64,000 nucleotides of DNA from a virus. The DNA is taken from positions 15,615-79,614 of IMG/VR virus record IMGVR_UViG_3300026473_000477. One strand, written 5' to 3'. The position numbers and the translations under genes were made by a program. Below, piece after piece: positions 32,142 to 56,472 of the stretch; within the stretch, counting starts at the first letter, position 1, and every line of letters starts with the position of its first letter. The notes under the pieces were generated by a model, which did not search any database, was not told the DNA's origin, and saw only the letters and a list, made by a program, of their open reading frames with translations.

Positions 32142-32480
32142 TTACTTCCTTTTGTGTAATCTTTTGAGGATTTGATCTGTTATATAGCTGATAAAATAAG
32201 CCTCTGGTTCGTCATTATCATGATCAAGCATAATACCCCTTGACTTAAATACAGCATTTTTGAAATGGATAAGTTCATGAAAGAAATCAGCTGTGTGCAT
32301 TTCCCTTAGCCAAATTTGGAAATAATGTCTACCTTCTTTGTCTTCAGTTTGCCAAAATCTACCATAAGCATTAAGAGGAACTTCACCAATAGCATATTTC
32401 TCAAGTTTTTTGACATCAGAGCCTAAATGGAAAATGACGTTAATATTGTAAATATCAGCGAAGAATTTAATTGTTTTCAT
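32142..32480 (-). CDS. HExxH metallopeptidase-like protein
   Basis: FFHELIH...EPEAY; start ATG 32480 supplied by the upstream mini-gene tail. Confidence 0.55.
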   Translation of the reverse strand: MKTIKFFADIYNINVIFHLGSDVKKLEKYAIGEVPLNAYGRFWQTEDKEGRHYFQIWLREMHTADFFHELIHFKNAVFKSRGIMLDHDNDEPEAYFISYITDQILKRLHKRK

Positions 32481-32694
32481 CAAGTCTCCAAAGTTTGACA
32501 AGTGTTGGGTGGATTTTAATTAAATCTAAAACTCTATAATAATTGCGATGATAACCAAATGAACACTCAATACAGTCGCCAAATCCAAAATCCACAATGT
32601 TATCCGAATATACCTTGAGTATAGGATAGTTACTCATACCTTTGTCTTGGAATAAATCAAGTAAAACAAAATCACCGACTTTAATATCGTTCAT
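32467..32694 (-). CDS. KVGD...HPxLVKLW mini-protein family member (SD-type tail)
   Basis: IKVGDF...KIHPTLVKLWRLDE. Confidence 0.85.
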   Translation of the reverse strand: MNDIKVGDFVLLDLFQDKGMSNYPILKVYSDNIVDFGFGDCIECSFGYHRNYYRVLDLIKIHPTLVKLWRLDENN

Positions 32695-32899
32695 CCAATC
32701 TCCAAAGCTTTACTAATATTGGATGTAATTTTCCAATAATACAATCCTCATAGAAGTCAAGACGTATCCAATATTTAGATCTAAAAGCATAATCATAACA
32801 AAGTAACCTACTATAATATAGGTCTACCTGTATAATCTTATCTATACGTATATCACTATTATTTTTATACATTATAAAATCACCAACTTGTATATTCAT
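32681..32899 (-). CDS. Mini-protein family member (SD-type tail)
   Basis: IQVGDF...GKLHPILVKLWRLDE. Confidence 0.85.
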   Translation of the reverse strand: MNIQVGDFIMYKNNSDIRIDKIIQVDLYYSRLLCYDYAFRSKYWIRLDFYEDCIIGKLHPILVKLWRLDERY

Positions 32900-33447
32900 T
32901 TAATTTGATATCCTTTCTCATTCATTCTATGTACTTCAAACTTAACTTTACCACTATCAACTAACCTTTTAATATTCCTCTGTTTTTCACTCAACTGGCT
33001 ATCTCCAGTCTTTACTTCAATGAAAGTTATCTGATCTTCCCCAAAATGCACGTAATCTATCGGGTTAAATAATCCTCTAAGTCCTTTAGATTCATAAGGA
33101 AAATCTCTAAGTAAAGGAGCAACATTTTCAGCAACAAGTCCAACCCTGACTTGTTCTGACCTCTCTTTACTTATTTTTTCAGCTAATTTACTTTCAACCT
33201 CAGAAAGTCTAGTGGCAAGTTCTCCACGTTGTCTGTCAGCCGTTTGGTAAAATTCGGTTAATGTATAGATCTGAGACTGGAACTGAGATACAGTAAACTT
33301 ATAAGTAGCCTCTAATTCATCGAATTTCTGCTTATAATCAACTTTTTCACTAGTACCATTAGATTTATTAGCCTCTTTATTAAACAGCTTTTTAAGCCAT
33401 TTTAACACTTGGATAATGTTCTGTAATTTAAACAAAAAGGCTAACAT
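32896..33447 (-). CDS. Holliday-junction-resolvase-like PD-(D/E)XK nuclease
   Basis: PIDYVHF...FIEVKTG.SQLS..QR.IK after a coiled coil. Confidence 0.75.
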   Translation of the reverse strand: MLAFLFKLQNIIQVLKWLKKLFNKEANKSNGTSEKVDYKQKFDELEATYKFTVSQFQSQIYTLTEFYQTADRQRGELATRLSEVESKLAEKISKERSEQVRVGLVAENVAPLLRDFPYESKGLRGLFNPIDYVHFGEDQITFIEVKTGDSQLSEKQRNIKRLVDSGKVKFEVHRMNEKGYQIK

Positions 33448-33455
33448 TTAATTTC

Positions 33456-33854
33456 CTATTCGTAAGGGATGATTAGTTCGTATCTACTTTTACTAAAGAA
33501 TCTAAGAGTAAGTCCATCTTCTCTGTCTACATTATTAGAATTGATAACGAAGAAATTATAAGAAAACTCAGAGGATATAGTTAACTCGAGAAGTTCGCCA
33601 GTAGTCTTATCCACATAAATACCATCAACAAAAGAATTCTCTCCAGAGCCTAAATCTAAACTAAAATCTCTACCAAGTAGAGTAAGGGTAACTGTAACTT
33701 GTCTATATAATGGATGTTTAAATACGCTTAAATTAAGCTTTTCATTATGCTTAATCTCTATAAGAAGGTTTGATAGTCCTTTCTCTACTGTTTTTACCAG
33801 CTTGGTAATATTCTTCCGTAGTTCTTTTACTTTTAACTGTAGTTTCTGATACAT
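33456..33854 (-). CDS. Hypothetical protein
   Basis: 132-aa ORF with AGGAG SD. Confidence 0.55.
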   Translation of the reverse strand: MYQKLQLKVKELRKNITKLVKTVEKGLSNLLIEIKHNEKLNLSVFKHPLYRQVTVTLTLLGRDFSLDLGSGENSFVDGIYVDKTTGELLELTISSEFSYNFFVINSNNVDREDGLTLRFFSKSRYELIIPYE

Positions 33855-33895
33855 AAATTGCTCCTATTAATGCTATAAATATTGGTAAAACCATA

Positions 33896-34084
33896 TTATA
33901 ACTTTCTGGTTAAGTATTTGTAAACAGCCATTCCAATAAAGAATAAGGCTAAGTAATGGTTAGCATAGGCTAGAGAAGCTCCAAGTAAGTAAGTTACCAG
34001 AGCTAGTGGTAAGAATATCAACTCTGGGAAGAATAGACTTAAAATTGCCAGTATAGAATAGATAATAACAGATTTCATATACAC
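33896..34084 (-). CDS. Small membrane protein
   Basis: Highly hydrophobic 62 aa; GAGG SD; TGGACA-N17-TAGTAT upstream. Confidence 0.5.
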   Translation of the reverse strand: MYMKSVIIYSILAILSLFFPELIFLPLALVTYLLGASLAYANHYLALFFIGMAVYKYLTRKL

Positions 34085-34217
34085 CTCATTATTCTATATA
34101 CTACACCATCAATCTTGATTTGTCCAGTCTTTTTTATGGAATCTATTGAAACAAATTTAGTAGATATCAAAATAGTCATAGCTATAAACATTGCCAGTAG
34201 TCCAAATATGAAATCTT

Positions 34218-34517
34218 TCATTCTTCACCTTTTAGTGTAATTTGACCTAGATAGGTTGTTTTTCTATTATTTTCTTTGTCGAATTGTTTCATGGCTTTGA
34301 TTACTTCTTTGTGAGTCATTCCATTTTCGTAAAAGCAAGAAACGCTCGTCCATTTATGGTCGCACATATAGGGACTATCTGAATAAACACATTCACCATC
34401 AGGATAAATTACTCTTATACGATATGACCATCTGGTACAAAAATGATGATCCTTGTCTTCACTTCTATCAATACTCGCCCAGAATGTAGGGTTATTGTAA
34501 TTAATCTTTTTTGTCAT
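34218..34517 (-). CDS. Hypothetical protein
   Basis: 99-aa ORF in operon. Confidence 0.5.
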   Translation of the reverse strand: MTKKINYNNPTFWASIDRSEDKDHHFCTRWSYRIRVIYPDGECVYSDSPYMCDHKWTSVSCFYENGMTHKEVIKAMKQFDKENNRKTTYLGQITLKGEE

Positions 34518-34762
34518 AAAGTTCCTTAGAAGATTCGTACCAAAAAGCTGTATATCTTAATCCTGAATGATGATACGGACGCACCTGATAAACTTGATTG
34601 CTCACGTATCTTTCAAGCCATACCCACTGATCTTTTATTAAAACAGGAACTAAAGCAAACTTAACTATAGATCTTTTTTCATTCAACCTAGGTGTGTTGT
34701 TTTTCCATTTCATTTTTTCCTCACAGTCATACCAAACACAATAAAGAATACAATAATGTAAA

Positions 34763-35284
34763 TCATTTGTCAACCTTTTTCTTAAATCCCCTATCATCGG
34801 CATATTCTTTGTTTTCTCTGTCATGATACATTAAAAACATAATATTAGTTGCGCAATGAGCTAAATGTGAACATCCAGTTTCTTTGTCGATATCTTCTCC
34901 AGATTGGAAAGCGAGTAAATGTCGCATTAAGCTTTCGTAAGGTGTTGAAAACTTTGTAGGTTTTTGCCAGTTATAATGTTCATATTTAACCCTAGACTTG
35001 GTTAATACTTCTCCCAAAGCTAAAATGAAATTTGGATCAATCTCTCTTGTCTGGATTTTTCCAGCATTGTATCTTTTAGACTCGCCATCATTTTGAGTTG
35101 TTTGTGGCTCTTTTACTACAAGATTAATTGACTCAGACTCTTCAAACTCATCAACTGGAGCAGTTAAATTAAACGCACCATTATCTCCAGATTGTAAATA
35201 AACCTTACATGATTTATCATCAATTGTTATAACTCTTCCTAGCTTTCTTGATAATTTATGGATTACAATATCGCCAACTTTCAC
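34763..35284 (-). CDS. dATP/dGTP diphosphohydrolase-domain (DUF5664-like) protein with N-terminal KVGD module
   Basis: KYEHYNWQK...SLMRHL...GEDIDKETGCSHLAHCATN; GGAGG SD before GTG 35284. Confidence 0.8.
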   Translation of the reverse strand: MKVGDIVIHKLSRKLGRVITIDDKSCKVYLQSGDNGAFNLTAPVDEFEESESINLVVKEPQTTQNDGESKRYNAGKIQTREIDPNFILALGEVLTKSRVKYEHYNWQKPTKFSTPYESLMRHLLAFQSGEDIDKETGCSHLAHCATNIMFLMYHDRENKEYADDRGFKKKVDK

Positions 35285-35325
35285 GAAACCTCCCAATGAT
35301 GGTAACAAGAGAATTATACCACAGA

Positions 35326-35742
35326 TTAGTAAAATCTTCCATTCTTATTTTCATGTTCTTCTGAAACATAGAAGTCACTTTTAAGCTGAACCATAAAAAC
35401 TTGAAGAATAACACATTCCAAATGTTTATGATCTGGAGTGTGATCCCAATGCTCCAAGTGTGCTAACTCATGAGCTAAAGTCGATAATAAATCAATAGTG
35501 GAGTATTTTTTAATCTTTTTAGGATTATTCCTATCTCTATAAGAAGTATATAGACAAATTCTTTCTGGCTTATTATCATAATAGACAATAGAACCTTGAA
35601 AATGCTGACCAAAGTTAGGATTAGCTTTCTTAGATGTTATCTTATTAATATTCTTAACTTTTGGAACTAAATGAGCAATGGAAGAAACATAATCCCTCAT
35701 CCACTCCAAGTCCTTTGTAAACTGTATTTTCTTTTTTGGCAT
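35326..35742 (-). CDS. HExxH zinc metallopeptidase-like protein
   Basis: TLAHELAHLEHWDH. Confidence 0.7.
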   Translation of the reverse strand: MPKKKIQFTKDLEWMRDYVSSIAHLVPKVKNINKITSKKANPNFGQHFQGSIVYYDNKPERICLYTSYRDRNNPKKIKKYSTIDLLSTLAHELAHLEHWDHTPDHKHLECVILQVFMVQLKSDFYVSEEHENKNGRFY

Positions 35743-35748
35743 AATTCC

Positions 35749-36003
35749 TCAGTTAAGCTTATCTTTATCCAAATAATCCTCAGTTTCCCATTCTCTAACA
35801 GAAATGAAGTCATCTTCTGATATATCATATCCAGTGAGAGAAAGTTCCAGTAATTCTTCTTTGGAAACATTACGCTGAATCTCTGGCGCACCAAAGCCTA
35901 AATCCATAATCTTTTCTAAGATCACTTTAGCTTTCTCATGGTTAGGACTAATGTCAGATTCCAACACTTCCCAAATTTCTCTAATTGCTTCAGACTTTTT
36001 CAT
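35749..36003 (-). CDS. Hypothetical protein
   Basis: 84-aa ORF in operon. Confidence 0.55.
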   Translation of the reverse strand: MKKSEAIREIWEVLESDISPNHEKAKVILEKIMDLGFGAPEIQRNVSKEELLELSLTGYDISEDDFISVREWETEDYLDKDKLN

Positions 36004-36016
36004 TAGTAGCCTTTTA

Positions 36017-36826
36017 TTATTTGCTAATAGCTTTATTATACGCTTTAACTGCCAATGCTACTGTATTTGACTTATCGTATTTAGCCAACTTTAAGAACAA
36101 TTCTTCCAAGCTTAAAACATCATATTTGTTATACTTTTCCATTGATTTCCAAGCTTTCATATTACCTTTAAGACATTCATCCCAAAGTTTAAAACCAGAG
36201 AAGTCAGAATGTTCTTGCTTCTTATATTTAGTGCAAAGCTTTTTAGTCATGTACTCTAACTTATTGGAAGTAAATCCAAAATGTTTCTTAGCAATTCTCA
36301 AGGTGTCAATGTTTTTGTAATGTGTTGGAGCATCTAATCCATGCTCAATAAGTCTGGCATTGATTTTTTTCATGTCAAATGATATGCCGTTTTGCGTAAT
36401 AACAATATCAGCTTTATCCAATAGTTTTTTAATCTTTACCAATAGTGGCTTATCATTATGTAATGACTTTCCTTTCTTATTCCTTTGGTCGGCATAGATT
36501 ACTTCAGATTCACTACTTCCAAGCCATTTAGCTGAAAATGATAGAATAAACCAATCTTTAATTAGCATATTAAGTGGGATGTTTTGGTCAAACAATCCCC
36601 ATACAAAACCAACCAAAGGGGATGTTTCGATATCTAAAATCAATACGTTAGGAGTATATTCTTCAGAATCAGAACAATAAGCTTGAATACAATGTTTGAT
36701 TGAATCAGGAGTTCTATGTAAGTTAAACTTTTGCCTAAACATTTTGCTAATCTCTGTTCGAGAATAACCTTGGCTATTCAACTTCCTTACATAATTTATC
36801 TGTTTTTTATCCCAAGTAATTTTCAT
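36017..36826 (-). CDS. DEDD/RNase H-like 3'-5' exonuclease with N-terminal HTH-like region
   Basis: LDIET, QNGISFD, IDTL, YNKYDV. Confidence 0.8.
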   Translation of the reverse strand: MKITWDKKQINYVRKLNSQGYSRTEISKMFRQKFNLHRTPDSIKHCIQAYCSDSEEYTPNVLILDIETSPLVGFVWGLFDQNIPLNMLIKDWFILSFSAKWLGSSESEVIYADQRNKKGKSLHNDKPLLVKIKKLLDKADIVITQNGISFDMKKINARLIEHGLDAPTHYKNIDTLRIAKKHFGFTSNKLEYMTKKLCTKYKKQEHSDFSGFKLWDECLKGNMKAWKSMEKYNKYDVLSLEELFLKLAKYDKSNTVALAVKAYNKAISK

Positions 36827-36863
36827 TAAAATCTCCAATAGTTATTATTATATAACTCATATT

Positions 36864-37145
36864 TTATTTAGTCAAGAAGAATTTATAAAGTTTCTGCATA
36901 TTTGGACTTAGTAGCTCTAAATCTTCTTCAGCCACAACTTCCCACTCATCAAAAGTCTTATTAAAGTTACAGATTAAGTATGCGATATTTTTAGGATTAT
37001 AAACAATTATATCAATAATTCGGTAATTAACTCCACGAAATTTAACAATATCTCCAATATTATACATTGGACCAGGATGGATAAAAAATGATAACTTAAA
37101 TAACGCTTTGGAAGTAAATCTGAGGATTGATTTAATAATTGACAT
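36864..37145 (-). CDS. Divergent mini-protein family member (promoter at 3' end)
   Basis: YNIGDIV...LSPNMQKLY; TTGACT-N17-TATAAT at 36847-36875. Confidence 0.55.
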   Translation of the reverse strand: MSIIKSILRFTSKALFKLSFFIHPGPMYNIGDIVKFRGVNYRIIDIIVYNPKNIAYLICNFNKTFDEWEVVAEEDLELLSPNMQKLYKFFLTK

Positions 37146-37246
37146 TAATTACTCTTTATTAAAATGACAGTAACAATAATCTGTACTATTGAAATTACAC
37201 ATTGGATAATTTGCCAGAAGACTCGCTTCTTTTCATAATCAGTCAT
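37145..37246 (-). CDS. 33-aa membrane peptide (not in ORF track)
   Basis: MTDYEKKRVFWQIIQCVISIVQIIVTVILIKSN; SD and ATG come from the upstream family tail; TAATG coupling downstream. Confidence 0.6.
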   Translation of the reverse strand: MTDYEKKRVFWQIIQCVISIVQIIVTVILIKSN

Positions 37247-37472
37247 CAAGTCTCCAAAGTTTGACAAGCGTTGGATGTAATATAGTGTATGAGCTGTTGT
37301 TACCTGTTAGTATATCTAAAGATAAATATTCAGAACCTCTTATCCATTCGCTACCTCTAATATGTTTGCAACTAAAATAAAAATAATTAGAAGTAAGTTT
37401 CGTAATCCTATAAAATACTAAAATATCATTAACACCATTATAAAAGAATATATCACCAACTTTAGGCTTCAT
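37239..37472 (-). CDS. Mini-protein family member (SD-type tail)
   Basis: PKVGDI...LHPTLVKLWRLDD. Confidence 0.85.
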   Translation of the reverse strand: MKPKVGDIFFYNGVNDILVFYRITKLTSNYFYFSCKHIRGSEWIRGSEYLSLDILTGNNSSYTILHPTLVKLWRLDD

Positions 37473-37668
37473 CCAACCTCCAAAGTTTGACCAATATCGG
37501 ATGGATTTTGGTATATTGACTAGGTAGAGGAATAAAAATTGCTCCCATATTCTGGTAATTATTTATTATTCTATATGTAGCTAAATTACCAGAAATATCT
37601 ACAATTTTTTCTATCTTAATAATATCTCCATTCTGGTAAATATAATACTCTCCAACTTCAGGTATCAT
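37462..37668 (-). CDS. Mini-protein family member (SD-type tail)
   Basis: PEVGEY...KIHPILVKLWRLDE. Confidence 0.85.
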   Translation of the reverse strand: MIPEVGEYYIYQNGDIIKIEKIVDISGNLATYRIINNYQNMGAIFIPLPSQYTKIHPILVKLWRLDEA

Positions 37669-38078
37669 GGTAGAAAAAACCTTTTGCCAGATTTAGGAGC
37701 TACAATTTGGCAATGTGTCCAAGTTTCTGTAGCAGAAAAGTCCTCAAACCATAAGCCAATTTCTTCCATTAGTTTAACATTAGCTTTTATCCAATCATGC
37801 AAGTCTTTTACAGGCTTTCCAATTGGGACGATATCGCAAGCTTCACATGACAAATGCTTGCTTTTCATGGGAATTTTCGACTTGTCTGTTATACCTTTGT
37901 CGGCATAAATCTGCAAGTGATGATTCATTGTACGAACACCAGATGTAACTTTTAAAGGCTTACCATAAGCATTTCTGAGCTTATTAATGCGTTCCAATAG
38001 AATCTCTAAATTGGCAAGCTGTTCTGGAGTTAAGTCAGATTCTAAATTTCCTGACAATAATTCTTGTTTAGTAATCAT
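37665..38078 (-). CDS. Peptidase M15-family endolysin-like protein
   Basis: TSGVR, SKH...ACD, WTHCQ. Confidence 0.8.
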   Translation of the reverse strand: MITKQELLSGNLESDLTPEQLANLEILLERINKLRNAYGKPLKVTSGVRTMNHHLQIYADKGITDKSKIPMKSKHLSCEACDIVPIGKPVKDLHDWIKANVKLMEEIGLWFEDFSATETWTHCQIVAPKSGKRFFLP

Positions 38079-39538: not shown

Positions 39539-39843
39539 TACTCTACCTTTTCCTTAAAGCAAATATACTTATCAAACTTATAAATATCAACATGCTCTTT
39601 TCCAATTTTATCACAATTTTTCTTATCTGTAAAGTGATAAGCGTATTCTATTGGAGCAGAGTCAATATATAAGTAAAGTACCCAGTATATCACTCAAAAT
39701 CCTGCATATTTCTAATCATTGCATCAATTGTGCTGATCTGAGCTTGGAAAGATAACCGCTGATCTCCAGTCAGATTATCACAGCTTACGTAAAATAAGCA
39801 GTTTAGTTCATGTCTAAGGTTACGTAATTGTGTTAGCGTCATT

Positions 39844-41553: not shown

Positions 41554-41555
41554 TG

Positions 41556-42518: not shown

Positions 42519-42557
42519 ATTCCTCCTTTTATGTTTTTGGGATAAACTATTATACCA

Positions 42558-42770
42558 TTATTTAAATAATTGTGCAAGAATATTAGGACATTTTATTAAA
42601 GATTTCTTTGGATAAATTACAAACCGATCTTCTCTTTCAATGTAAATTTCCAACATTTCTGTACTTGGAAATTCAAAGAATGTAAAAGATATATTAATAA
42701 CTTGACCAACTTTATAACAGTCTTTATGGAAAATAAAAACATAATCTCCAATAGTTATATTACTCGACAT
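42558..42770 (-). CDS. Divergent mini-protein family member (promoter at 3' end)
   Basis: ITIGDY...KCPNILAQLFK; TTGCAC-N17-TATAAT with extended -10 TG at 42549-42577, upstream of nrdB. Confidence 0.65.
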   Translation of the reverse strand: MSSNITIGDYVFIFHKDCYKVGQVINISFTFFEFPSTEMLEIYIEREDRFVIYPKKSLIKCPNILAQLFK

Positions 42771-42984
42771 CTAATTTCCATAGCTTAATTAATATTGGAT
42801 GAAGTGGAACAAAGCCTTTTATGTAATTATAAAATTCTTCAATTCCCAAAGATGACGGATAAAAATCCTGACTATTGACAAACTTAAAGTAATGATTTAT
42901 ACTATAATTATTAATATTTCTTACAATAATAATCTCACCATCTCTGGGATCAATGAAAACATCACCTTTCTTAATATTTATCAT
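42760..42984 (-). CDS. Mini-protein family member (SD-type tail)
   Basis: IKKGDV...LHPILIKLWKLDV. Confidence 0.85.
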   Translation of the reverse strand: MINIKKGDVFIDPRDGEIIIVRNINNYSINHYFKFVNSQDFYPSSLGIEEFYNYIKGFVPLHPILIKLWKLDVE

Positions 42985-43186
42985 CCAATCTCCAGAGATT
43001 TACTAATATCGGATGGACTTTTCCAATAAACATGTCGTCATAGTAATCAATAGGCAAATTAATATACTGTTTATATTTTTGATCGTAGCACAAAATCGTA
43101 TCGCTGTCTATCGAAACAATATTATCTATACGCACTTCATCAAATAATTCATATAATACAACATCACCAGCTTTTAAATCTATCAC
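42971..43186 (-). CDS. Mini-protein family member (SD-type tail)
   Basis: LKAGDV...GKVHPILVNLWRLDD. Confidence 0.85.
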   Translation of the reverse strand: MIDLKAGDVVLYELFDEVRIDNIVSIDSDTILCYDQKYKQYINLPIDYYDDMFIGKVHPILVNLWRLDDKY

Positions 43187-43623
43187 AAATCCACCCCAAA
43201 ACCTACAGCAATGCGTTTATCTGAAGTTCCCATTACCTGTAACTTAACAGCTCCATAAATTGGAACTAAAGCATTTAAGCCGTATTCTGTCTTTCCTGAT
43301 AGATTAGCCGAATCTTTGATAGCCAGCATTCCAAGAGTAATTCCAGAGCCTTTGGTAATCTTATCAGACTTTACCACTAGTGTTCGATCTTTATCCTCTC
43401 TGGTATTTGTATTTTCATCAATAGTTACAGTAACTTCTTTTGTTCCATCTGGCTTAGTAATTTCCTTTCTTACTTCTCTTTTCTTTTTGTCCTCAACCTT
43501 TACAACTTTTTCAATTTCTACTGTTTTGATCTTTTCTATAACTTGCGGCTTTTGTTGGAGAAGAAATCTGCCAATTAAAAGACCGATAACAAGGCTTACT
43601 GAAACGTACTTTAAATTATTCAT
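43183..43623 (-). CDS. Membrane-anchored protein with C-terminal amphipathic beta strands (spanin-like candidate)
   Basis: N-terminal TM, K/E/V/T-rich stalk, ends RIAVGFGVDL. Confidence 0.5.
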   Translation of the reverse strand: MNNLKYVSVSLVIGLLIGRFLLQQKPQVIEKIKTVEIEKVVKVEDKKKREVRKEITKPDGTKEVTVTIDENTNTREDKDRTLVVKSDKITKGSGITLGMLAIKDSANLSGKTEYGLNALVPIYGAVKLQVMGTSDKRIAVGFGVDL

Positions 43624-43843
43624 CTAATCTCCATAGTTTGACCAGTATTGAGTGAATTTTAACATAATTACTTGACAAAGGAAAGTGACCCAGTCCGATG
43701 TGATCAATACCATTTATATAGCTTGCTTTGTATTTAAATTTATCATTAGAATATAATTCTAATATCTTTTCTATTTGAAGAACTTGCCCATTTATAGGAT
43801 TAATAAAAAAGTAATATTCTCCAACTTTTGGATCATCTCTCAT
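43616..43843 (-). CDS. Mini-protein family member (SD-type tail)
   Basis: PKVGEY...KIHSILVKLWRLDE. Confidence 0.85.
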   Translation of the reverse strand: MRDDPKVGEYYFFINPINGQVLQIEKILELYSNDKFKYKASYINGIDHIGLGHFPLSSNYVKIHSILVKLWRLDE

Positions 43844-48090: not shown

Positions 48091-48129
48091 ATTGGAAATA
48101 TTTTACCAGATATGAGTAAAATTATCAAG

Positions 48130-48990
48130 TTAAATTATTTCTTTTCTTTTATTTTCCCCATCTCTAATACTTCTCTTGATCTGATAAACATCCTTGCTAT
48201 CAAGCTCATTTGGGGCTAATTGCTCGCATAATTGCCAGATCTTGTCCTCATCTACCCCAGACAATGAAAGTGAGAATACGCATGAATTTAAGCTATTAAT
48301 CCACATTCCTTCTAATCCAGTTGGAGCATTTCTAATGAAGAACTCAACGCTTTCAGGAATTGTCTCTTTATCCTTTCCGTACAATTGTTTAACAGTTTCT
48401 CTGATATCATCAGTTACAGTAATTTGAACGTCACTAATGGCATATTCTCTGATCTTCTCCTCTTCAGTTTTATTTTCCACTGGTAATAGAAAATCTCCCA
48501 ATTGGAAAAATCCATCATCCATTTTTGACATACAGTAAAATCTGGCATAATCTGAACATTGCTCATCAAGCTCAGGAAATAATGACATCAAATAGTCCCA
48601 AGTGTCATCAAATATTTTCTTGTTGGTAATTGTCTTGGCTAGTGGAAAGATTAGCCGATGTTTCTGATTTTCTTGGTTAAAGCTTGGACTTGGTAAACAT
48701 AAAGCACACAGTCCGAGTTTTGCCACTCTTCTTTCAGATTCCAAAATAGACAATCCGTTGTCAATATCAATTCCAATAAAGTCAGCTGAAATGAAGTTAT
48801 CATTGTGGCGTTTTCCAGAGAATATACTTGGACTCCAAGCAAAGCTCGTCACTAGTTCAATTAAGTGATCCTCATTCTCCACAACAACCGTTTCTGGTAA
48901 ATTGGGATAACTGCAAAGCTTGGATAAATCGTTCTTATCTTGCTTGGTTAGCGGAAGATAATTAGCTTGTCTATAGATTGATATCTTCAT
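48130..48990 (-). CDS. Primase-like (AEP/PrimPol-type) protein
   Basis: GIDID, SPS...KHRLIFPL, helical C-terminal domain; lies between helicase and polymerase. Confidence 0.6.
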   Translation of the reverse strand: MKISIYRQANYLPLTKQDKNDLSKLCSYPNLPETVVVENEDHLIELVTSFAWSPSIFSGKRHNDNFISADFIGIDIDNGLSILESERRVAKLGLCALCLPSPSFNQENQKHRLIFPLAKTITNKKIFDDTWDYLMSLFPELDEQCSDYARFYCMSKMDDGFFQLGDFLLPVENKTEEEKIREYAISDVQITVTDDIRETVKQLYGKDKETIPESVEFFIRNAPTGLEGMWINSLNSCVFSLSLSGVDEDKIWQLCEQLAPNELDSKDVYQIKRSIRDGENKRKEII

Positions 48991-49195
48991 CAAGTCTCCA
49001 AAGCTTAATTAATGTCGGGTGAACTTTCCCAATAAAGTTATCATTATAGTGCTTTGAATTTACCCAACAATTTTCCTTAAAATTAAAATCGTACATATAA
49101 ATCCTGTTATCTTCTTCGTCTATCTTTGTAATTTTACTGGTAATGGTTTCGTTACCAATGCTAAACTGTACAATATCTCCAACTTCCGATTTCAT
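48971..49195 (-). CDS. Mini-protein family member (SD-type tail)
   Basis: SEVGDI...GKVHPTLIKLWRLDE; TGGACA-N17-TATACT upstream at 49216-49244. Confidence 0.85.
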   Translation of the reverse strand: MKSEVGDIVQFSIGNETITSKITKIDEEDNRIYMYDFNFKENCWVNSKHYNDNFIGKVHPTLIKLWRLDEDINL

Positions 49196-49246
49196 ATCAT
49201 TCCTTTATAAATGATAGTATATGTGAAATCACATCAACTGTCCAGC

Positions 49247-50263
49247 TTATAAATCCTCTGATTGGGGTTTTGATCCTCCAATAATTCTATCCAACTTTAC
49301 TTCTTTACCATCTTTTCCGACAATAGTTTCTGACAAATCAAATTGGTAAGATTTAAACTTCTCTTCGTTTTGCATTAATTCCAGCACTTTTTCATAATAC
49401 ATACCGAAGTCTGCTTTTTCTTGTCTTTTTAGCTCTCTTAAGTTTTCAGATTCATGTTCAAAATATAACAAATAGTTCATACCTTCTTTTAGCTTATCTC
49501 TCTTATTTTTGTATCTAATTTTCTGATATGCAAAAGCTAGGATCGGTAAATCTGTTTCTTTTTGTACTCTAATTAGTGGCTGAAAGATTGTAATAATATT
49601 AGTAGCTAACCACTCAGCTTTACTAGTCCCAAAAGCTCCATCTCTACTAATTGGCGTATCTCCTTTTCCGGCTTTTCCTTTAGTAGTTTGAGAAGCTAAG
49701 AACACATGAGTATCGACCTCTACAGCCAGCGTTTTAAATAAGTCTACAACTGGATTATAATCAACTCCTCCATTTATGTTAACTTGGTGAAGGTGATCAA
49801 TGAAAGTAGCAATAATAGTAGTGTTTAAAGTTTCCTTAATCTTCTTAAGTTCGTGCTTAATTAGATTTGCAGTCAGAGCCTTAGAAGTTCCGTCTTCATT
49901 GTAATTTTCGACAATATAAAACCTTTCTGATATCTCTGGACAATCTCTTGTTGCCAGTAACCATTTCTCAATAATCTCACCGGCAGTCATCTCTAAAGAA
50001 ACCATAACCACACAACCATCAGGATTATTTAGTAGAATATGCTTAAAAATCCAAAGCATAGTTGAAGTTTTACCAATTCCAGGTGCGCCTAAAAATAGTG
50101 ATAAATCTCCTCTAAGCCAAGGTCTTTCTAAACAGTCCATTTCTTTTGGACCTTTAACAGCCTTTAAAATATCATAAGAAGAGGTTAAATTTCCTTGCTT
50201 AATAATACTTCCAACGCTTCTAACACCCATTTGCTTTTTCCTCTGCTCCATAAAATTCATCAT
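49247..50263 (-). CDS. DnaB/RecA-type replicative helicase
   Basis: Walker A GAPGIGKT, SLEM, FIDHLH, LASQ, KIR. Confidence 0.85.
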   Translation of the reverse strand: MMNFMEQRKKQMGVRSVGSIIKQGNLTSSYDILKAVKGPKEMDCLERPWLRGDLSLFLGAPGIGKTSTMLWIFKHILLNNPDGCVVMVSLEMTAGEIIEKWLLATRDCPEISERFYIVENYNEDGTSKALTANLIKHELKKIKETLNTTIIATFIDHLHQVNINGGVDYNPVVDLFKTLAVEVDTHVFLASQTTKGKAGKGDTPISRDGAFGTSKAEWLATNIITIFQPLIRVQKETDLPILAFAYQKIRYKNKRDKLKEGMNYLLYFEHESENLRELKRQEKADFGMYYEKVLELMQNEEKFKSYQFDLSETIVGKDGKEVKLDRIIGGSKPQSEDL

Positions 50264-50499
50264 TATATCTCCTTATCCCAGCCATAAAGTTTAACTAATA
50301 TTGGATGTACTTTTCCTATATATCTGTCTTGATAATAGCTAATACTACTAAGACGACCAGTATTTACTGCTTTTTCGTTTAATTGTCTATAAGTTACTAC
50401 ACCATCACTATCAACATTTACTATAAAATCTATCGAAATCTTTCCTAAAAACCTATACATTACACAATCTCCAGCTTTTATCTCAACTTTCGTATCCAT
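50263..50499 (-). CDS. Mini-protein family member
   Basis: IKAGDC...GKVHPILVKLYGWD; tail contains AAGGAG and a TAATG overlap with the helicase. Confidence 0.85.
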   Translation of the reverse strand: MDTKVEIKAGDCVMYRFLGKISIDFIVNVDSDGVVTYRQLNEKAVNTGRLSSISYYQDRYIGKVHPILVKLYGWDKEI

Positions 50500-50700
50500 A
50501 AAACTCCACAATAGATTTCAATCTTTTTTCCAACTCTATTTTATCATCTCCACTGGCAATTTGTAAAGCGAAATAATAACAAACATAAATTGGACATCCA
50601 GACACCGCAGCATAAAGAGAAAGGCTACTAATGCCATTTTTCTGATATTGCTTATGTACGTGTTCCAATTGGGACAAATAATCATCAGGATTAATTTTCA

Positions 50701-51000
50701 CTAATAAACCTTTTCGATGTCATCACATTTACAGTGAGGACAACTAGTCCGAAGAAGTCTAGTTCCATCAGACAACCTCGGACCAGATTGGTACTTATAA
50801 AATAACCTATCACATCCATTACAGCTTAACATACTTTCTGGTTTATTTCTAGCCATAAACTCATACTTCCTGTTTGTTTCATAAATACTAACACATGGTT
50901 TACAAATCCCACGATTATTTGCCAATAGTCCAGATTCTCTCTTCATATTGGAAAGTTGCAGTTTATCATTTCTACAAACTCTACAAGTGAAATTATTCAT
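50701..51000 (-). CDS. Cys-rich zinc-binding protein
   Basis: Four CxxC pairs. Confidence 0.6.
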   Translation of the reverse strand: MNNFTCRVCRNDKLQLSNMKRESGLLANNRGICKPCVSIYETNRKYEFMARNKPESMLSCNGCDRLFYKYQSGPRLSDGTRLLRTSCPHCKCDDIEKVY

Positions 51001-51307
51001 TAGATTTTATCAATTTTGTAAAGTTTTGTTTTCTCATTACTTCTACATTTCCAGTTGCTAATGCTTGATTAATAATATCAGACATTATTAGATTAGTTCC
51101 ATATCCATTTTTGTGACATTTATATACACTTCCAGAGTTACCATAAAACAGATAATAATCGCCATCTTCTTCCACTTTAACAATACCAGAATTAATTTTC
51201 CAACTTTGACCTTCAAGATAAGAGCCAGACCAGCCAGCCAATACTTTATAGCCGATTTTTCCGTTATCCTCTATTTTCAAGACAACCCATTTATCAGGTG
51301 TATACAT
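50993..51307 (-). CDS. Hypothetical phage protein
   Basis: YTPDKWVVLKI...WSGSYL..SWKINSGI. Confidence 0.6.
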   Translation of the reverse strand: MYTPDKWVVLKIEDNGKIGYKVLAGWSGSYLEGQSWKINSGIVKVEEDGDYYLFYGNSGSVYKCHKNGYGTNLIMSDIINQALATGNVEVMRKQNFTKLIKSNE

Positions 51308-52123
51308 ATTATTCCTCTATAACAACCTTATTTATAATATTTTTAAGATCTTTTAAATCATCTAAATCTAATACTATATTATATTCTTCGTCATATTTAT
51401 TCTCTAAAAGTATAGCATTATTTATATATTTTACAACATAACTATCGCCAATAGTGCCTAAATTAATATCCAAGTGTTTTGTTAAATAGTTTGCAATATC
51501 ATCATCTGTGGCGATTCTCCAATTATAAGATTTGTAAAATCCAAATTCGTATGCTAACCATTTCTGATCTTCTTCAACTAAATCTAAACATCTATATGCA
51601 GGTTTATCGCCCTCGACTAACTCATCAACTACCATACAAGTAGCTAATCTGAAATTATTAGCGCAAATGATATCGCTTTTTTTAAATCTATCTTCAAATC
51701 TTTTCATTCTTGCTCCATAAAAAAGCTTTTAAAGTGAGCATGTTCGTTTTTTGTAATTGGATTATTGTGGTTTACAACTAAAAACTCTTCATCTACTTGC
51801 AAGTTATTAAACACTTTGATAGTGCCACCTTTTTCCATAAATTCTTTGTAAGTTATTGGATTTCCTGAGTGATCTACGGCAATGGCAAAACTTTCTGACA
51901 TATCTCCACCAAAATGAAATCTATATTTTTTTACCATTTCTTTATTTAATTTAACCTTCATAATCAATCCTTTTAATTTACCTTTGATGTTTCATCACCT
52001 ATCGGGAAGGTAGCTCCGACATACTTCTGGAATGTATGCTAACCTCTCAATCTTTAAGCTTCTCCCAAGTAAAATCTGGGGCTTAGGTTTGAGTTACCTA
52101 TTAGCCTTCTGGCGGTCAAAAGG

Positions 52124-52456
52124 CTATTTCTTTGGCTGTACTTTTACAATCTCAAAAACAACATTAGTAAGATCTCCACCTTCTTTATATCTGGAAACCT
52201 TCTCATCATATTCAGCTTCAGTAATCTTACCACTTTCAAGCATTGTCTTAAACTTGTCATCAGGTCTGTTTACATAAAAGTAAGAGCTTTCATATTTCTT
52301 ACCATTAATTGTAATTTCAACATCCTTGTTTAGTACAAAAGTATACTGTTGTCTTCCTTCATCATCCTTGATGAGTTCTCCAGTATCCTTGTTGGTACGC
52401 TTAAAGATTGTTCCAAGTTGCCTATTTTCTGGTTTATTATTCCTCTGTTGACTCAT
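52124..52456 (-). CDS. Possible ssDNA-binding protein
   Basis: Beta-rich 110 aa in the recombination cluster; weak call. Confidence 0.35.
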   Translation of the reverse strand: MSQQRNNKPENRQLGTIFKRTNKDTGELIKDDEGRQQYTFVLNKDVEITINGKKYESSYFYVNRPDDKFKTMLESGKITEAEYDEKVSRYKEGGDLTNVVFEIVKVQPKK

Positions 52457-52765
52457 TGCTTTCTCCTGTTAATTGTTGTTGCTGTCTTACTGACTCTTCT
52501 ATCATTGATTGTACCACAACTTCAGTGGCAATTGCAACTAAAGTATCGCTAATTCTTTTTGAAACAATATTAGCTGTTTCCAATTCTGGCTCATTTTCAA
52601 AATGGATATCTTCCATTGGATAAGCTGCCATTGCCTCAAGTAGCCTATCTTTCTGTCCATGCTTTAAATGTGCTTTAAGTTCATTGAAATATTGCCGATC
52701 AATGGCAAGGTTTTCTCTCATTTTCTGCTGAACTTCCTGACGACTAATAATCTTTTTTTCTTCCA

Positions 52766-53341
52766 TTAAAGTTCTCCACTAGTTGTTTGTTGTGTTGTTG
52801 GTTTATTCTTACGAAATCCACTTCTTGGAATTTCTTCAGATTGCTCTGGTTTAGCTGCTTCTATTCGAGTTTCCGTTGGCTTAGATCTTTGTTGGGAAGT
52901 CTCAATAGTTGGAGTTTCTAAATCTCCTTCAGTCATATCCTCAGTTGGAATAGAGAATGTTTGGATTAAGGCATACTTAAGAGCAGCAGAAAGTGCTTTA
53001 TTAGTAGCTTTGTCTCCAGAGTCTAGCCCTTCAGCTGGAATTGGACCTACTGTAATTTTAGAGCCATCTTCAGCAAAAAAATCATATTCCATCATAATTG
53101 TTACATGTTTATCAATACCAGCTTTTCCAGATCCTCTAGTAACTTCATTAAGTTCATGCTGTTCATTAACGCAACGTGGAGCCATAAAAACTCCATGTTT
53201 AGTCAAAGCTGGGTAAAGATTGTTAACAAACTGATCAATTCCTCGGAATTTAAATCCTTGAGCTTGGTTCTTTTGGTCTTTTCCGACACTTCCAATATCT
53301 TTCATGACATCAGACATTTTCTTATAAATTAAACCACTCAT
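52766..53341 (-). CDS. erf: ERF-family ssDNA annealing protein
   Basis: FKFRGID, GLDSGDKATNKALSAALKYAL...IPT. Confidence 0.85.
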   Translation of the reverse strand: MSGLIYKKMSDVMKDIGSVGKDQKNQAQGFKFRGIDQFVNNLYPALTKHGVFMAPRCVNEQHELNEVTRGSGKAGIDKHVTIMMEYDFFAEDGSKITVGPIPAEGLDSGDKATNKALSAALKYALIQTFSIPTEDMTEGDLETPTIETSQQRSKPTETRIEAAKPEQSEEIPRSGFRKNKPTTQQTTSGEL

Positions 53342-54095
53342 ATTAAACTCCCAATAGCTTTAATGCCGAATCTAGTGCCAACTCTTGAGCTTTTGCCAAT
53401 TCTTCAGAGTGAGCTGAGATTGTTACTCTTTTGTCCACTAGTGACTTATCATCTTTCATTTTGAGTACAGTTAGAATCAGAGAAGTTCCAATTTGTCCGA
53501 CTTTTCCGCCAGTAGTAGTGTTAAACTGTAGATCAAAAGACCCATTTTCACCCGACAACTTCTTTAGCCTTTTTGCAAAACTTACATTCATTTGTTTTCT
53601 CCTTTGAAAACTTTTGTTTGTTTTTTGTTCATTATTGATTCTACCAATTCTTTTTTGGCTTGGTACATTGCAACTTGATAATCTCCAGTAGATAGTGACG
53701 TTACTTTGTCAATTTTACACCCACCATTTACAAGATCATATTTTAGCATAACTTTATGAAATTTACCAGAAGAATCTTCATAAATTGATAAAGCTAGACC
53801 TTTTAGATCTTCTTCTTTTGGAACTAGTTGTTTTTCCAATGATTGTACTTCTTTTAGCTTTTCTGATAGCGTCTGAATAATTTCAATCAGTTGTTTTTTG
53901 GTTTTACTTTCTAAGTCATTCATTATCCCTCCATTGGAAAATTCTTGTCAATTTGATCTGACACCCATTCAAAAAATATATCATCAGTAATTTTAATTTT
54001 ATCCTCACCGCTTCCCCAATCGTGGGAAATTACGTAATCAGCCCATTCAGCTTCCAATTCTTCTTGATTTTGTAAATAATATTCATAAACTTTGC

Positions 54096-54644
54096 TCATA
54101 GTCCCTTATTTTCCAATAATGCAATTAATATCGATAAATTAATGCCTTCTTGATCTTTTTCTGACCTTGCTGACTCTGCTGCTGACCTTGCTGCTGACTC
54201 TGCTGACCATGCTGCTGACCTTGCTGACCCTGCTGCTGACCCTGCTGCTGACCATGCTGCTGACCTTGCTGACCCTGCTGCTGACCCTGCTGCTGACCAT
54301 GCTGCTGACCATGCTGCTGACTCTGCTGACCATGCTGCTGATTTACCTAACTCGCCATTAATTACCTTTTTTACAACTTCTAAACAATCTCTAACTCTTG
54401 TGTCGTTTGGAAATTCTCTCTCAAAATTATCTAAAACAAATTCAGCACATTCTACAGACCAGATTTGTAATGTTTTTAGTGGAGCAACTTTAGTAGCAAG
54501 CCAAATTTTATTATTATAACTAATATCTTCCAAAGCTAACAAATCTGACAACTTACCATTAAAGTCTGGATGTTTATTCTCAAAATCTAAAATACCATCT
54601 TCACATGGATTTAATCTTCTGATAAATTTAGAATTAATTTTCAT
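54096..54644 (-). CDS. Helical protein with SAA(W/R/G/E) repeat tract
   Basis: FPNDTRVR followed by tandem AWSA/AGSA/ARSA repeats. Confidence 0.7.
   Translation of the reverse strand: MKINSKFIRRLNPCEDGILDFENKHPDFNGKLSDLLALEDISYNNKIWLATKVAPLKTLQIWSVECAEFVLDNFEREFPNDTRVRDCLEVVKKVINGELGKSAAWSAESAAWSAAWSAAGSAAGSARSAAWSAAGSAAGSARSAAWSAESAARSAAESARSEKDQEGINLSILIALLENKGL
54160..54341. repeat. 9/12-bp coding tandem repeat (GCTGCTGACxxx)
   Basis: Visible tandem array encoding Ser-Ala-Ala-X. Confidence 0.9.
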
Positions 54645-54661
54645 AAAGCTTCCTTTTTGAT

Positions 54662-54691
54662 ATTATACATCATTTTCTAATAATTTGTCAA
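54662..54691 (-). promoter_or_regulatory. sigma70 promoter inside mini-gene tail
   Basis: TTGACA-N18-TATAAT. Confidence 0.75.
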
Positions 54692-54899
54692 GTTGCCAAA
54701 GTTTGACTAATGTTGGATGTACTTTTCCAATAAACATGCCGTCATAATAGTCAATAGATATCTTTGTGTACTGGTCAAACTCATGATCATAACATTCAAT
54801 TATTCTGTCATCAATTGACATAATAGTATCTATACGTACTTTGCCAAATAAACCATACATCACAACATCACCAGCTTTAAGGTTTAGTTTCGAGTCCAC
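54663..54899 (-). CDS. Mini-protein family member (promoter-type tail)
   Basis: LKAGDV...GKVHPTLVKLWQLDK. Confidence 0.85.
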   Translation of the reverse strand: MDSKLNLKAGDVVMYGLFGKVRIDTIMSIDDRIIECYDHEFDQYTKISIDYYDGMFIGKVHPTLVKLWQLDKLLENDV

Positions 54900-55857
54900 T
54901 CATACTTCCTTCCCAACAATATTTATAATATGGACACTTTTTCCCAAATGAATAGCATTGTTTTTTGTCGCTCTTTCCCGAAAACTCGCCACTCTTAATC
55001 AATTTTACCAAATTATCAACTCTTTGGAAAGCTTTTTGAAATGATTCCTCAGAAATCTTGTCTTTTATAATAGTTATCCTAATTTTTGGCTCTCTTTTTC
55101 TGACTTCCTTTTCGACAACAACATAACTTGCGTCCAAAATCTCTTCACTTTCACAATAGATTGCCAATTGGAGAGATGTACTTACAGAATCCTCTTTATA
55201 AGCCTTACTTGACGTTTTGTTATCACAGATATATACTTTGTCAGGCTCGTCAATAAAACTGCATTTAAAGTCAATTTTGCCAGTAATCTCATCTTCTCCA
55301 TTATTTAGAGTAATTGTCTTTTGGATGTCAAACACTTCAGAAATTTTTGGGATGACTTCTTTTTCATAAGCATCAATTAGCAATAATCCTTTATTGTAAA
55401 GAGAAAGCCAATTCATGTAATTATATGTTTTCTGATCTTGTAAACTTAGCTTTTTGCCTTTTTCAATGACATCTCGACATTCTTGGTAAAATGACAAGAA
55501 ATCATAAATTTCTCCATCAAATTCTTTTAACTTGGAATAATCCTCCTCTGTCAGCAAATCAGGACTGAAATCTTTCTTGGAGTAATCGCACCATTCATTA
55601 GTGGCAAGATTTTGATCTCTGGAAACTTTCATGTTTTCGTCAAAAACCTCTCGCCAAGATTTTACCATTAGTAACTTTTCATCATCAGTTAAGTTCTTCT
55701 TTTTTTCCAATAGAAGTCTGGAAAAAGCTTCATCTGTCGCATTTCCGAAGAACAATGGGGAGTCAATCTTTTTTGGTCTAATTCTTTTATTATAATGTAA
55801 ATCGAACTTTTTGGGACATTCTTCGTAAGTTGTAAGAGATGAATATGAAAATTTCAT
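54877..55857 (-). CDS. PD-(D/E)XK (RecB/Cas4-like) exonuclease with Cys cluster
   Basis: SYSSL..YEECP, GKID, DNKT, QLAIY, C...CPY..YC. Confidence 0.85.
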   Translation of the reverse strand: MKFSYSSLTTYEECPKKFDLHYNKRIRPKKIDSPLFFGNATDEAFSRLLLEKKKNLTDDEKLLMVKSWREVFDENMKVSRDQNLATNEWCDYSKKDFSPDLLTEEDYSKLKEFDGEIYDFLSFYQECRDVIEKGKKLSLQDQKTYNYMNWLSLYNKGLLLIDAYEKEVIPKISEVFDIQKTITLNNGEDEITGKIDFKCSFIDEPDKVYICDNKTSSKAYKEDSVSTSLQLAIYCESEEILDASYVVVEKEVRKREPKIRITIIKDKISEESFQKAFQRVDNLVKLIKSGEFSGKSDKKQCYSFGKKCPYYKYCWEGSMSGLETKP

Positions 55858-56064
55858 TTTTTATCCTTAATTTGATCTTCTAGTCGCCAAAGTTTTACTA
55901 AAATCGGATTGACTTTACTAATAAAAGTATGATTATAATAACTACTTTCTACCAAAATCACAATATCAAGATAAAAATCATAACAAAGAATTTCACCGTG
56001 TTTATTTATTTCTAGAATCATATCCATATATTATTACATCTCCAACTTTTATGTCAATCGCCAT
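55854..56064 (-). pseudogene. Frameshifted mini-protein family member (not in ORF track)
   Basis: MAIDIKVGDVIIYG in one frame (stop at 56002); MDMILE...SKVNPILVKLWRLED in another (55854-56027). Confidence 0.75.
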
Positions 56065-56255
56065 AATTTCCCCAATATTGGATGTATTCTCATTGTATTT
56101 CCAGATGACACTCTGATTATATCATAGTTTTCTACAAGTTCGCAAACATATTTGTCTTCTTCTTTGTGGTAATTTAAAACTATAGCTAAACCTTTGATAT
56201 TTTTGTATAAGTCGTGCTGGACATAAACTAAGTCGCCAATTTTGATGTTACTCAT
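56049..56255 (-). CDS. Mini-protein family member
   Basis: IKIGDL...RIHPILGKLWRL. Confidence 0.85.
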   Translation of the reverse strand: MSNIKIGDLVYVQHDLYKNIKGLAIVLNYHKEEDKYVCELVENYDIIRVSSGNTMRIHPILGKLWRLT

Positions 56256-56472
56256 CCAATCTCCAGAGCTTTACAAGAATTGGATGAACTTTAGTATAAT
56301 AACTACCTTCTTTTGTAATATAGTCTAACCTTAATTCATTCGGCTCTGTAGTCCAATATTCGTGTTTAAACAAGTATCTAAACTTTTCAGAATCAACTCG
56401 GACTATCTTTTCAATTTGAAAATTACCATTTCCTTTATCATATAAATAATAATCGCCAACTTTTACTTCCAT
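56248..56472 (-). CDS. Mini-protein family member (SD-type tail; likely start 56472)
   Basis: MEVKVGDY...KVHPILVKLWRLDE. Confidence 0.85.
   Translation of the reverse strand: MEVKVGDYYLYDKGNGNFQIEKIVRVDSEKFRYLFKHEYWTTEPNELRLDYITKEGSYYTKVHPILVKLWRLDE

Follow-up and report, generated by a model that had tools for sequence, protein, structure and literature searches.

A family of short genes, which we term mini-genes, punctuates the replication module of the phage represented by IMG/VR virus record IMGVR_UViG_3300026473_000477, and the analysis presented here makes it probable that the 3′ end of a mini-gene serves as the translation-initiation region of the gene that follows it, with translational coupling and cassette shuffling both taking place at these junctions. 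We carried out the analysis on a stretch of 64,000 nucleotides (the window), corresponding to bases 15615 to 79614 of the 79,614-bp record, which is ≈95% complete. The window has a G+C content of ≈33%, and from ≈28.5 kb to its end nearly all genes are found on the minus strand, in a replication and nucleotide-metabolism module that harbors a family-B DNA polymerase (PolB), both ribonucleotide reductase subunits, a DnaB-like helicase, a PD-(D/E)XK nuclease, and a primase-like gene. Searched with a profile of the family, the complete record yields 17 mini-gene copies, all co-oriented on the minus strand, including one divergent copy and three that are located outside the region covered by an earlier annotation of this DNA made from its letters alone (the original prediction).

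Nine of the 17 copies terminate in TGGARRYTNGATG (TGG-ARR-YTN-GAT-G), just as the original prediction had it. This motif returns nine exact matches, on the minus strand every time, where shuffled sequences give 0.06, and the codon at the Arg position is AGA in seven, AGG in one, and AAA in one. Each match comprises the last codons of a 68- to 77-aa open reading frame (ORF) that ends in ...HP[IT]L[VI]KLW[RK]LD, and each includes an ATG in a shifted frame. The DNA motif exceeds chance simply because a gene family is repeated; what is meaningful, and not due to chance, is that in nine of nine cases the embedded ATG opens a +1 frame that enters a real gene. These nine copies (referred to below by their lower coordinate), and the primase-like gene that begins inside one of them, are as follows.

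32681..32899, minus strand: mini-gene copy of 72 aa, first of a tandem pair; tail TGG AGA TTG GAT G at 32692–32704, with ATG 32694 opening the next copy.
32467..32694, minus strand: mini-gene copy of 75 aa; tail motif at 32478–32490, with ATG 32480 opening a 112-aa ORF (32142–32480) after a 14-nt overlap.
37462..37668, minus strand: mini-gene copy of 68 aa; tail TGG AGG TTG GAT G at 37470–37482, with ATG 37472 opening the next copy.
37239..37472, minus strand: mini-gene copy of 77 aa; tail motif at 37244–37256, with ATG 37246 opening a 33-aa hydrophobic ORF (37145–37246).
42971..43186, minus strand: mini-gene copy of 71 aa with a GTG start, first of a tandem of three; tail motif at 42982–42994, with ATG 42984 opening the next copy.
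42760..42984, minus strand: mini-gene copy of 74 aa; tail TGG AAA TTA GAT G at 42768–42780, containing a weak Shine–Dalgarno sequence (GGAA), with ATG 42770 opening the divergent copy 42558.
43616..43843, minus strand: single mini-gene copy of 75 aa; tail motif at 43621–43633, with ATG 43623 opening a 146-aa ORF (43183–43623).
48971..49195, minus strand: single mini-gene copy of 74 aa between the helicase and the primase-like gene; tail motif at 48988–49000, with ATG 48990 as the primase start and a 20-nt overlap.
56248..56472, minus strand: mini-gene copy of 74 aa, head of a tandem of three; tail motif at 56253–56265, with ATG 56255 opening the next copy.
48130..48990, minus strand: primase-like gene of 286 aa, beginning within the tail of copy 48971; N terminus MKISIY.

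Five of the nine downstream ORFs are further family members, in which a conserved KVGD head starts 3 to 6 codons past the embedded ATG; the other four are the 112-aa, 33-aa, 146-aa, and 286-aa ORFs listed above. The claim that the embedded ATG opens the next gene is borne out at all nine positions, in frame and with no plausible competitor: the only in-frame start codon within 36 codons of any embedded ATG is 32637, located 19 codons into copy 32467, and its use is implausible because the conserved KVGD head of that copy would be lost. Tail and next gene overlap by 8, 11, 14, or 20 nt, and the residues encoded past the Asp (ENN*, ERY*, D*, EA*, VE*, DKY*, E*, and EDINL*) correspond to the first codons of the downstream gene, read one base out of frame. 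Eight of the nine tails contain GGAG-N5-ATG, the ninth having GGAA, and this geometry is the same as that found at other genes of the genome (AAGGAG or GGAG, N5–7, ATG). A Shine–Dalgarno (SD)-like sequence is found within the upstream ORF 4 to 10 nt ahead of the downstream start, and this true start overlaps or abuts the upstream stop.

In the arrangement that we propose, TGG-AGA would supply the SD core GGAG, the Leu codon and a G the 5-nt spacer, and the AT of GAT together with the next base the ATG. A ribosome that finishes translating the mini-gene would stand 8 to 20 nt beyond the next start and could thereby couple the translation of the two genes, and each module junction would be built alike, with an SD, ≈5 nt, and a start that overlaps or abuts the upstream stop. 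The tails harbor no conserved RNA hairpin that hides the start and share no common structure (folding z of −1.5 to +1.7). Because no sequestering hairpin is predicted, strict dependence of downstream on upstream translation is not implied. One candidate for a start-hiding hairpin, CATCCAAT/ATTGGATG, is seen only in tails with Ile and TTG and was rejected.

For the primase-like gene, the position of the start can be read from its homologs. All 14 aligned primase homologs (56–73% identity, from 191 found) start with MK[IL]S[IV]Y at the same position, from which it follows that the primase natively starts at ATG 48990, embedded in the tail of copy 48971; the contrary possibility raised along with the original prediction, that downstream genes initiate elsewhere, does not hold for this gene. 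The homolog P0022 is 73% identical.

We then placed the mini-genes in the context of other phages. The region and its primase have no megablast or tblastn match among the cultured phages in INPHARED, PolB has only a distant match among cultured phages (24% identity, to Salinibacter phages), and scans of IMG/VR with the primase alone and with the helicase alone found no relative. The primase-like protein nonetheless led to 21 loci from related uncultured phages. Their replication modules contain many 60- to 90-aa genes with a K-[VI]-G-D head, a hypervariable body, and a tail of the form [ST][SP]L-x-x-x-L[LFIW]*. An hhalign comparison of the window family with these genes gives a probability of 91.9% and an E-value of 7e-7 over the N-terminal 33 columns, and alignment by eye places HPILVKLW on TPLLEALF without gaps ([HST]P[IL]LxxL[WFL]); the tails of the relatives stop at the equivalent of the Trp, where the window lineage adds R-L-D. 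The signature of a K-[VI]-G-D head, a length of ≈60 to 90 aa, and a helix that ends at or near the next start is found clade-wide, and judged by sequence, the mini-genes are a superfamily scattered through the replication modules of uncultured freshwater phages of one clade. The clade (L003–L023; records G001–G005, up to ≈85 kb) shares primase-like, helicase, 83-aa, and PolB genes, and each of its records has 5 to 16 or more detectable mini-genes, with ten in 4.6 kb in L020; L019 exhibits a third tail type, REATEMDxALEGL*.

The 21 loci contain 61 distinct tails, 46 of which overlap the next start by (A/G/T)TGA, and the SD of these relatives sits in the helix codons, as in AAG-GAG-TTG-TTA-TGA. 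Coupled tails harbor SD cores in 27 of 47 cases against 11.7 expected from synonymous resampling (2.3-fold), with a mean duplex energy of −6.0 versus −3.5 kcal/mol, whereas uncoupled tails harbor them in one of 13 cases against 2.6 expected. Glu at position −3 relative to the stop is encoded by GAG versus GAA in a ratio of 17:7 in coupled tails and 2:6 in uncoupled ones (p = 0.038), on a background of 61% GAA. These comparisons show statistically that the SD in the coupled tails of the relatives is under selection, as far as codon choice can reveal it: a large effect is seen, and only tails with an overlapping start show it in the predicted direction.

Mini-genes are gained and lost in front of the primase. 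In four loci, the helicase C terminus (...SGDL*) abuts the primase ATG directly. In nine others, the helicase–primase gap of ≈170 to 1,050 nt is filled by mini-genes, the first of which starts by an NTGA overlap on the helicase stop in seven of nine cases, and L020 has at least five mini-genes before the primase, the helicase being outside the fetched piece. Copy number at this position thus ranges across the clade from none to at least five, while the primase N terminus remains constant; alignment of relatives that lack a copy reveals the same primase N terminus with or without a mini-gene upstream. The suggestion that a mini-gene can be placed before any gene, even an essential one, holds to this extent, although "any gene" is overstated; 5 of the 17 window copies lack the device. 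The helicase ending ...SGDL* (GGA GAT YTN TRA; L003–L013) itself supplies GGAG and an overlapping start and resembles the GGAGAYTNGATG motif of the window.

Strain-level comparisons were made with two short contigs, L001 and L002. L001 is 98 to 99% identical to 54460–58126 and has two mini-genes where the window has one: copy 54663 combines the body of the first L001 copy with the tail of the second, and the repeat CATCCAAYATTAGTMAARCTTTGG bounds the 211 bp by which the two strains differ. The upstream copy in L001 ends in a W-R-L-D tail, the embedded ATG of which starts the extra copy. In L002, the body of the counterpart of copy 48971 is 28% mismatched (synonymous divergence, dS, 1.05), whereas from TGGAGA onward the mismatch falls to 1.9% (primase dS 0.10). 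In sequence terms, one allele has replaced another here, up to a 3′ limit set by the motif itself. In a second sample, some five contig breaks occur over 19.5 kb, and three tails (54696, 49041, and 50286/50320) are among the sites.

The many dispersed and tandem copies in one orientation, with a presence that varies among relatives, might also suggest autonomous or enzyme-driven mobile DNA in which the tail is the site for a transposase, homing endonuclease, or site-specific recombinase, in the manner of miniature inverted-repeat transposable elements (MITEs), MPME elements, or integron cassettes. We consider this highly improbable. Single copies are not bracketed by terminal inverted repeats, none having been found around copies 43616, 48971, and 50263; synonymous variation in the tail DNA leaves no fixed site of 15 nt or longer; the conserved hairpin is missing, as the folding scores given above indicate; searches of Pfam and PHROGs detected no family in the mini-genes; and the boundaries fit homologous exchange within a repeat. 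In the absence of terminal inverted repeats and of a conserved hairpin, homologous or short-homology recombination is the simplest mechanism. Recombination between junctions or tails would add, delete, and exchange whole start-to-start units, and downstream genes would retain a ribosome-binding site (RBS) and their own first codons after each exchange. With respect to the earlier proposal that the initiation signal explains how the family spreads and forms tandems, gain, loss, and swapping at existing junctions, as with the 211-bp unit, are observed, and spread to new sites may be supposed by extension.

The remaining eight copies in the window extend this picture to other types of 3′ end.

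42558..42770, minus strand: divergent copy of 70 aa with the tail PNILAQLFK* and no embedded start.
50263..50499, minus strand: copy with the tail KLYGWDKEI*; AAGGAG formed by the K-E codons, then N5, then TAATG, which overlaps the DnaB-like helicase start at 50263.
54663..54899, minus strand: second-class copy with the tail WQLDKLLENDV*; TTGACA-N18-TATAAT at 54691–54662, and a downstream gene with its own SD.
55854..56064, minus strand: frameshifted copy, with a 20-codon head from ATG 56064 and a 57-aa remainder from 56027.
56049..56255, minus strand: copy with the tail HPILGKLWRLT*, with CGA for Arg and no GGAG; alternative register, with ATG 56064 located seven bases further upstream, in the TTA-TGG codons.
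58146..58385, minus strand: second-class copy with the tail WQLDKLFENE*, followed by a spacer with AAAAGGAG and a 317-aa lipoprotein-like gene; TTGACA-N17-TAAAAT at 58171–58143.
59638..59868, minus strand: second-class copy with the tail WQLDKLFEK*, preceded by a terminator-like hairpin (59909–59884) and the 15-mer TTGGGGAAATTATGG.
61091..61327, minus strand: second-class copy with the tail YGLDKLFENK*, followed by a spacer with AAAAAAGGAG and a 370-aa gene; TTGACA-N17-TAAAAT at 61116–61088.

The original prediction listed three further copies as carrying the next start or SD within their last codons. This stands for copy 50263 (AAGGAG, TAATG) and for copy 55854, whose tail WRLEDQIKDKK* (Arg as CGA) provides AAGGA and an ATGA overlap before the PD-(D/E)XK nuclease start at 55857. 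For copy 56049 it must be qualified: a Val-to-Gly change unique to this copy creates GGGG five bases before ATG 56064, but that ATG opens a frame of only 20 codons because copy 55854 is frameshifted. The frameshift occurs after ≈14 codons and is identical in the sister strain (L001:2063–2273), for which reason copy 55854 is probably decaying and not the product of a sequencing error. Copy 42558 is followed by a 39-nt spacer with AAAAGGAGG and then by the ribonucleotide reductase small-subunit gene.

Four copies form a second tail class ending in (WQ/YG)LDKL(F/L)EN..*, followed by a spacer or leader with its own AAGGAG. Here, the codons for L-D-K (CTT GAC AA) open a TTGACA-N17/18-TATAAT/TAAAAT/TAAACT sequence that ends at the stop codon. 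These promoter-like sites (54662–54691, 58143–58171, 59632–59660, and 61088–61116, minus strand) are among the best of the region in a consensus scan, with 12/12, 11/12, 11/12, and 10/12 matches. Such tails are consistent, at the level of consensus matching, with the idea that the 3′ ends of mini-genes carry expression signals for the following gene. In addition, the tail of copy 56049 (CGA TTG ACA TAA) generates a further TTGACA-N16-AATAAT at 56057–56030.

The 15-mer TTGGGGAAATTATGG occurs exactly at 56061–56075 and 59865–59879 (minus strand), as the L-G-K-L-W codons in the tail of copy 56049 and as the noncoding RBS and start of copy 59638, respectively; the common 15-mer suggests that a tail and a free-standing RBS once exchanged sequence. 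The 370-aa gene and mini-gene 59638 are separated by the strong terminator-like hairpin at 59884–59909 (minus strand), which has a 10-bp stem followed by T6, and GGGGAAATT-ATG comes directly after this hairpin. Two products of the interval 56474–58117 (minus strand) were recognized by eye: one of 223 aa, in which the C terminus has an OmpA-like motif, and one of 317 aa, with a signal of the lipoprotein type (…LLFISCGK). Together with canonical SD usage, these OmpA-like and lipoprotein-like proteins suggest a low-G+C Gram-negative freshwater host, and the window DNA is present in several riverine metagenomes.

How far the tail sequence is shaped by its use as a start, and how far by the protein that it encodes, is a question of codon choice. 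On one account, SD and ATG are a pure by-product of W-R-L-D-[ED] encoded with an AT-rich codon bias: the helix is kept for the sake of the protein, downstream genes use the signals only because genes are tightly packed, and the family grew by ordinary duplication and divergence, in which the signals had no share. Several points weigh in this direction and against the reading of the tail as an initiation signal. AGA accounts for 72% and AGG for 11% of Arg codons in the window phage and GAT for 75% of Asp codons, and with AGA and AGG making up 83% of Arg codons, GGAG follows nearly automatically from W-R and could be a free by-product of W-R plus codon bias. When synonymous codons were resampled in the six codons before each start, the SD core observed in eight of nine tails compared with 6.2 expected (the core being predicted in 78% of trials), which is not significant, so that selection on the SD is not shown in the window phage. 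The tails vary at synonymous sites, which indicates a constraint on the protein. The coupled tail of copy 42760 has GGAA only. Stop/start overlaps are found in 40 of the 67 nonfamily junctions of the genome (60%), which makes coupling as such ordinary, and the five copies without an embedded start have a spacer and a separate SD instead, four of them with a promoter-like tail. As for the relatives, the homology of the two tail types is seen by eye only, hhalign covering just the N-terminal 33 columns, and the z of 5.8 for the SD excess in coupled tails is inflated by some amount because these tails are not phylogenetically independent. Finally, riverine metatranscriptome contigs match 52003–53579, 56189–57770, and 58796–60975 of the window at 100% identity, and one that covers 56189–56479 crosses the junction of copies 56248 and 56049, but this is weak evidence for in situ transcription of the matched stretches, as the contigs come from one library, are possibly DNA-derived, and do not allow start or strand to be read.

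Other observations are hard to square with a pure by-product. The homologous tails of the relatives, which stop at the equivalent of the Trp, lack the R-L-D extension, so that the fold does not require it; the residues past the Asp are frame-shifted downstream codons. Where the ATG is unused, the codons differ: both Arg tails of this kind have CGA (5% usage, found twice), and the four second-class tails have Gln (CAA) and GAC. Such substitutions, taken with the GGGG of copy 56049, are hints of function from a few cases that are partly related by descent. The synonymous SD excess among the relatives is strong and confined to coupled tails, and the boundaries of indels and replacements fall at tails. 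On balance, we regard the by-product account as unlikely, and the proposal that each mini-gene brings its own initiation signal draws support from the geometry, the native primase start, and the synonymous SD enrichment of the relatives, while in the window phage itself the synonymous signal for the SD is not significant.

The mini-genes are nonetheless genes in their own right. The bodies of the window copies are 10 to 40% identical, while the 10 to 12 tail residues (helix HPxLVKLW) are almost invariant; each tail codon column uses two to five synonymous codons, which places the conservation at the level of the protein and not of a fixed DNA element. AlphaFold2 models a five-stranded barrel (strands 12–17, 20–30, 33–38, 43–48, and 56–59) with a short C-terminal helix, PILVKLW (predicted local distance difference test score, pLDDT, 91; predicted template-modeling score, pTM, 0.79), and the proteins are predicted to adopt an SH3/Tudor/KOW-like barrel. 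The best Foldseek matches are PWWP, Tudor, KOW, and designed SH3 barrels, with template-modeling (TM) scores of 0.5 to 0.6, along with many unnamed small phage proteins; none is significant (E ≥0.007 overall and ≥0.066 against solved structures). The weak profile matches are to L24, S4e, and DUF2187. No mini-gene matches Pfam above the cut-off (DUF2187, 17.7 versus 24.7 bits), PHROGs returns nothing above threshold (one weak match, E 8e-4), and none of 29 mini-genes from the relatives matches Pfam. A profile search of the PDB gives weak KOW-like matches only, the ESM Atlas gives unnamed viral clusters only (scores ≤0.89), and an IMG/VR scan for the tail type of the window finds nothing. A full HMMER search of 1.84 billion representatives retrieved only the lineage of the window and one spurious repeat protein, P0020. 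The family profile missed the homologous mini-genes of the relatives because the tail dominates it; these were found through synteny.

A position directly before replication genes, overlaps of 8 to 20 nt, and the very fast divergence of the bodies could be taken to mean that the mini-ORFs are regulatory upstream ORFs, in which translation itself and not the product sets downstream expression. This seems to us scarcely tenable in view of the confident fold prediction, a nonsynonymous-to-synonymous ratio (dN/dS) of ≈0.3 in two ortholog pairs, which signifies purifying selection on the protein and marks the mini-genes as genuine genes, the conservation of the KVGD head and helix across a clade whose primases are only ≈55% identical, and the five copies that are coupled to nothing. 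Because divergent alleles are swapped at fixed positions, a role as host-interaction or accessory factors is probable for the proteins. They would have in common with SH3, Tudor, and KOW barrels and DUF2187 the five-strand barrel predicted here, and their K-x-G-D head resembles the KOW motif; those families have no counterpart to the conserved C-terminal helix and R-L-D extension.

Translational coupling with an SD inside the 3′ end of the upstream ORF and with ATGA or TAATG overlaps is common in phage and operon genes. The junctions described here resemble it in that an SD in the upstream coding sequence stands 5 nt before an overlapping start, and the window phage uses mostly 1- and 4-nt overlaps elsewhere. 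They differ in that one conserved motif of a 17-copy family provides the same SD-spacer-ATG at nine junctions, in that the mini-gene overlaps measure 8 to 20 nt and not 1 to 4 nt, and in that the junctions also mark where units are gained, lost, or replaced. What is unusual, as read from the sequence, is the reuse of a protein motif as RBS and start at nine junctions, with the same logic applied clade-wide to other sequences and with junctions that are cassette boundaries. Helix, RBS, and putative recombination joint occupy the same ≈35 nt.

Among mobile cassettes, integron cassettes are promoter-less, arranged in one orientation and in series, and dependent for expression on signals of the array, and the mini-genes are like them in these respects. 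They differ in that no attC-like site or integrase is evident around the mini-genes, whose boundaries fit homologous exchange, and the bracketing terminal inverted repeats of MITE and MPME elements are lacking as well. By analogy, the closest described counterpart is the PeSL promoter–terminator cassette of T4-type phages, which is reportedly also treated by Comeau et al. in 2014. In the account of Arbiol et al. 2010 (PMC2839356), PeSLs are short repeated expression signals that flank small, mostly ORFan early genes, and recombination between the repeats yields the insertions, deletions, and replacements that separate close relatives. Recombination between repeats would likewise lie behind the indels and replacements seen here, and the second tail class resembles a sigma-70 promoter. 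In contrast to PeSLs, which are noncoding repeats composed of a sigma-70 promoter and a stem-loop terminator and act on transcription, the mini-gene repeat is coding and carries an RBS and start, and the W-R-L-D tails have no conserved hairpin.

We tentatively put forward the mini-genes as an undescribed class of phage cassette, start-to-start units that would move within and between related phages via SD-start junctions and load accessory genes before essential replication genes at no expression cost, though we hold this with less than even confidence. How accessory genes enter tightly coupled essential operons harmlessly is seldom visible in phage mosaics and is readable here, where natural variants with none to at least five copies attest to an arrangement that accommodates gain, loss, and allele swapping. 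If confirmed, it would offer a design rule for the insertion of genes into coupled operons and a handle on a large, uncharacterized superfamily of SH3-like small proteins of abundant freshwater phages; if true, the mini-genes would be the translational counterpart of PeSL and integron cassettes.

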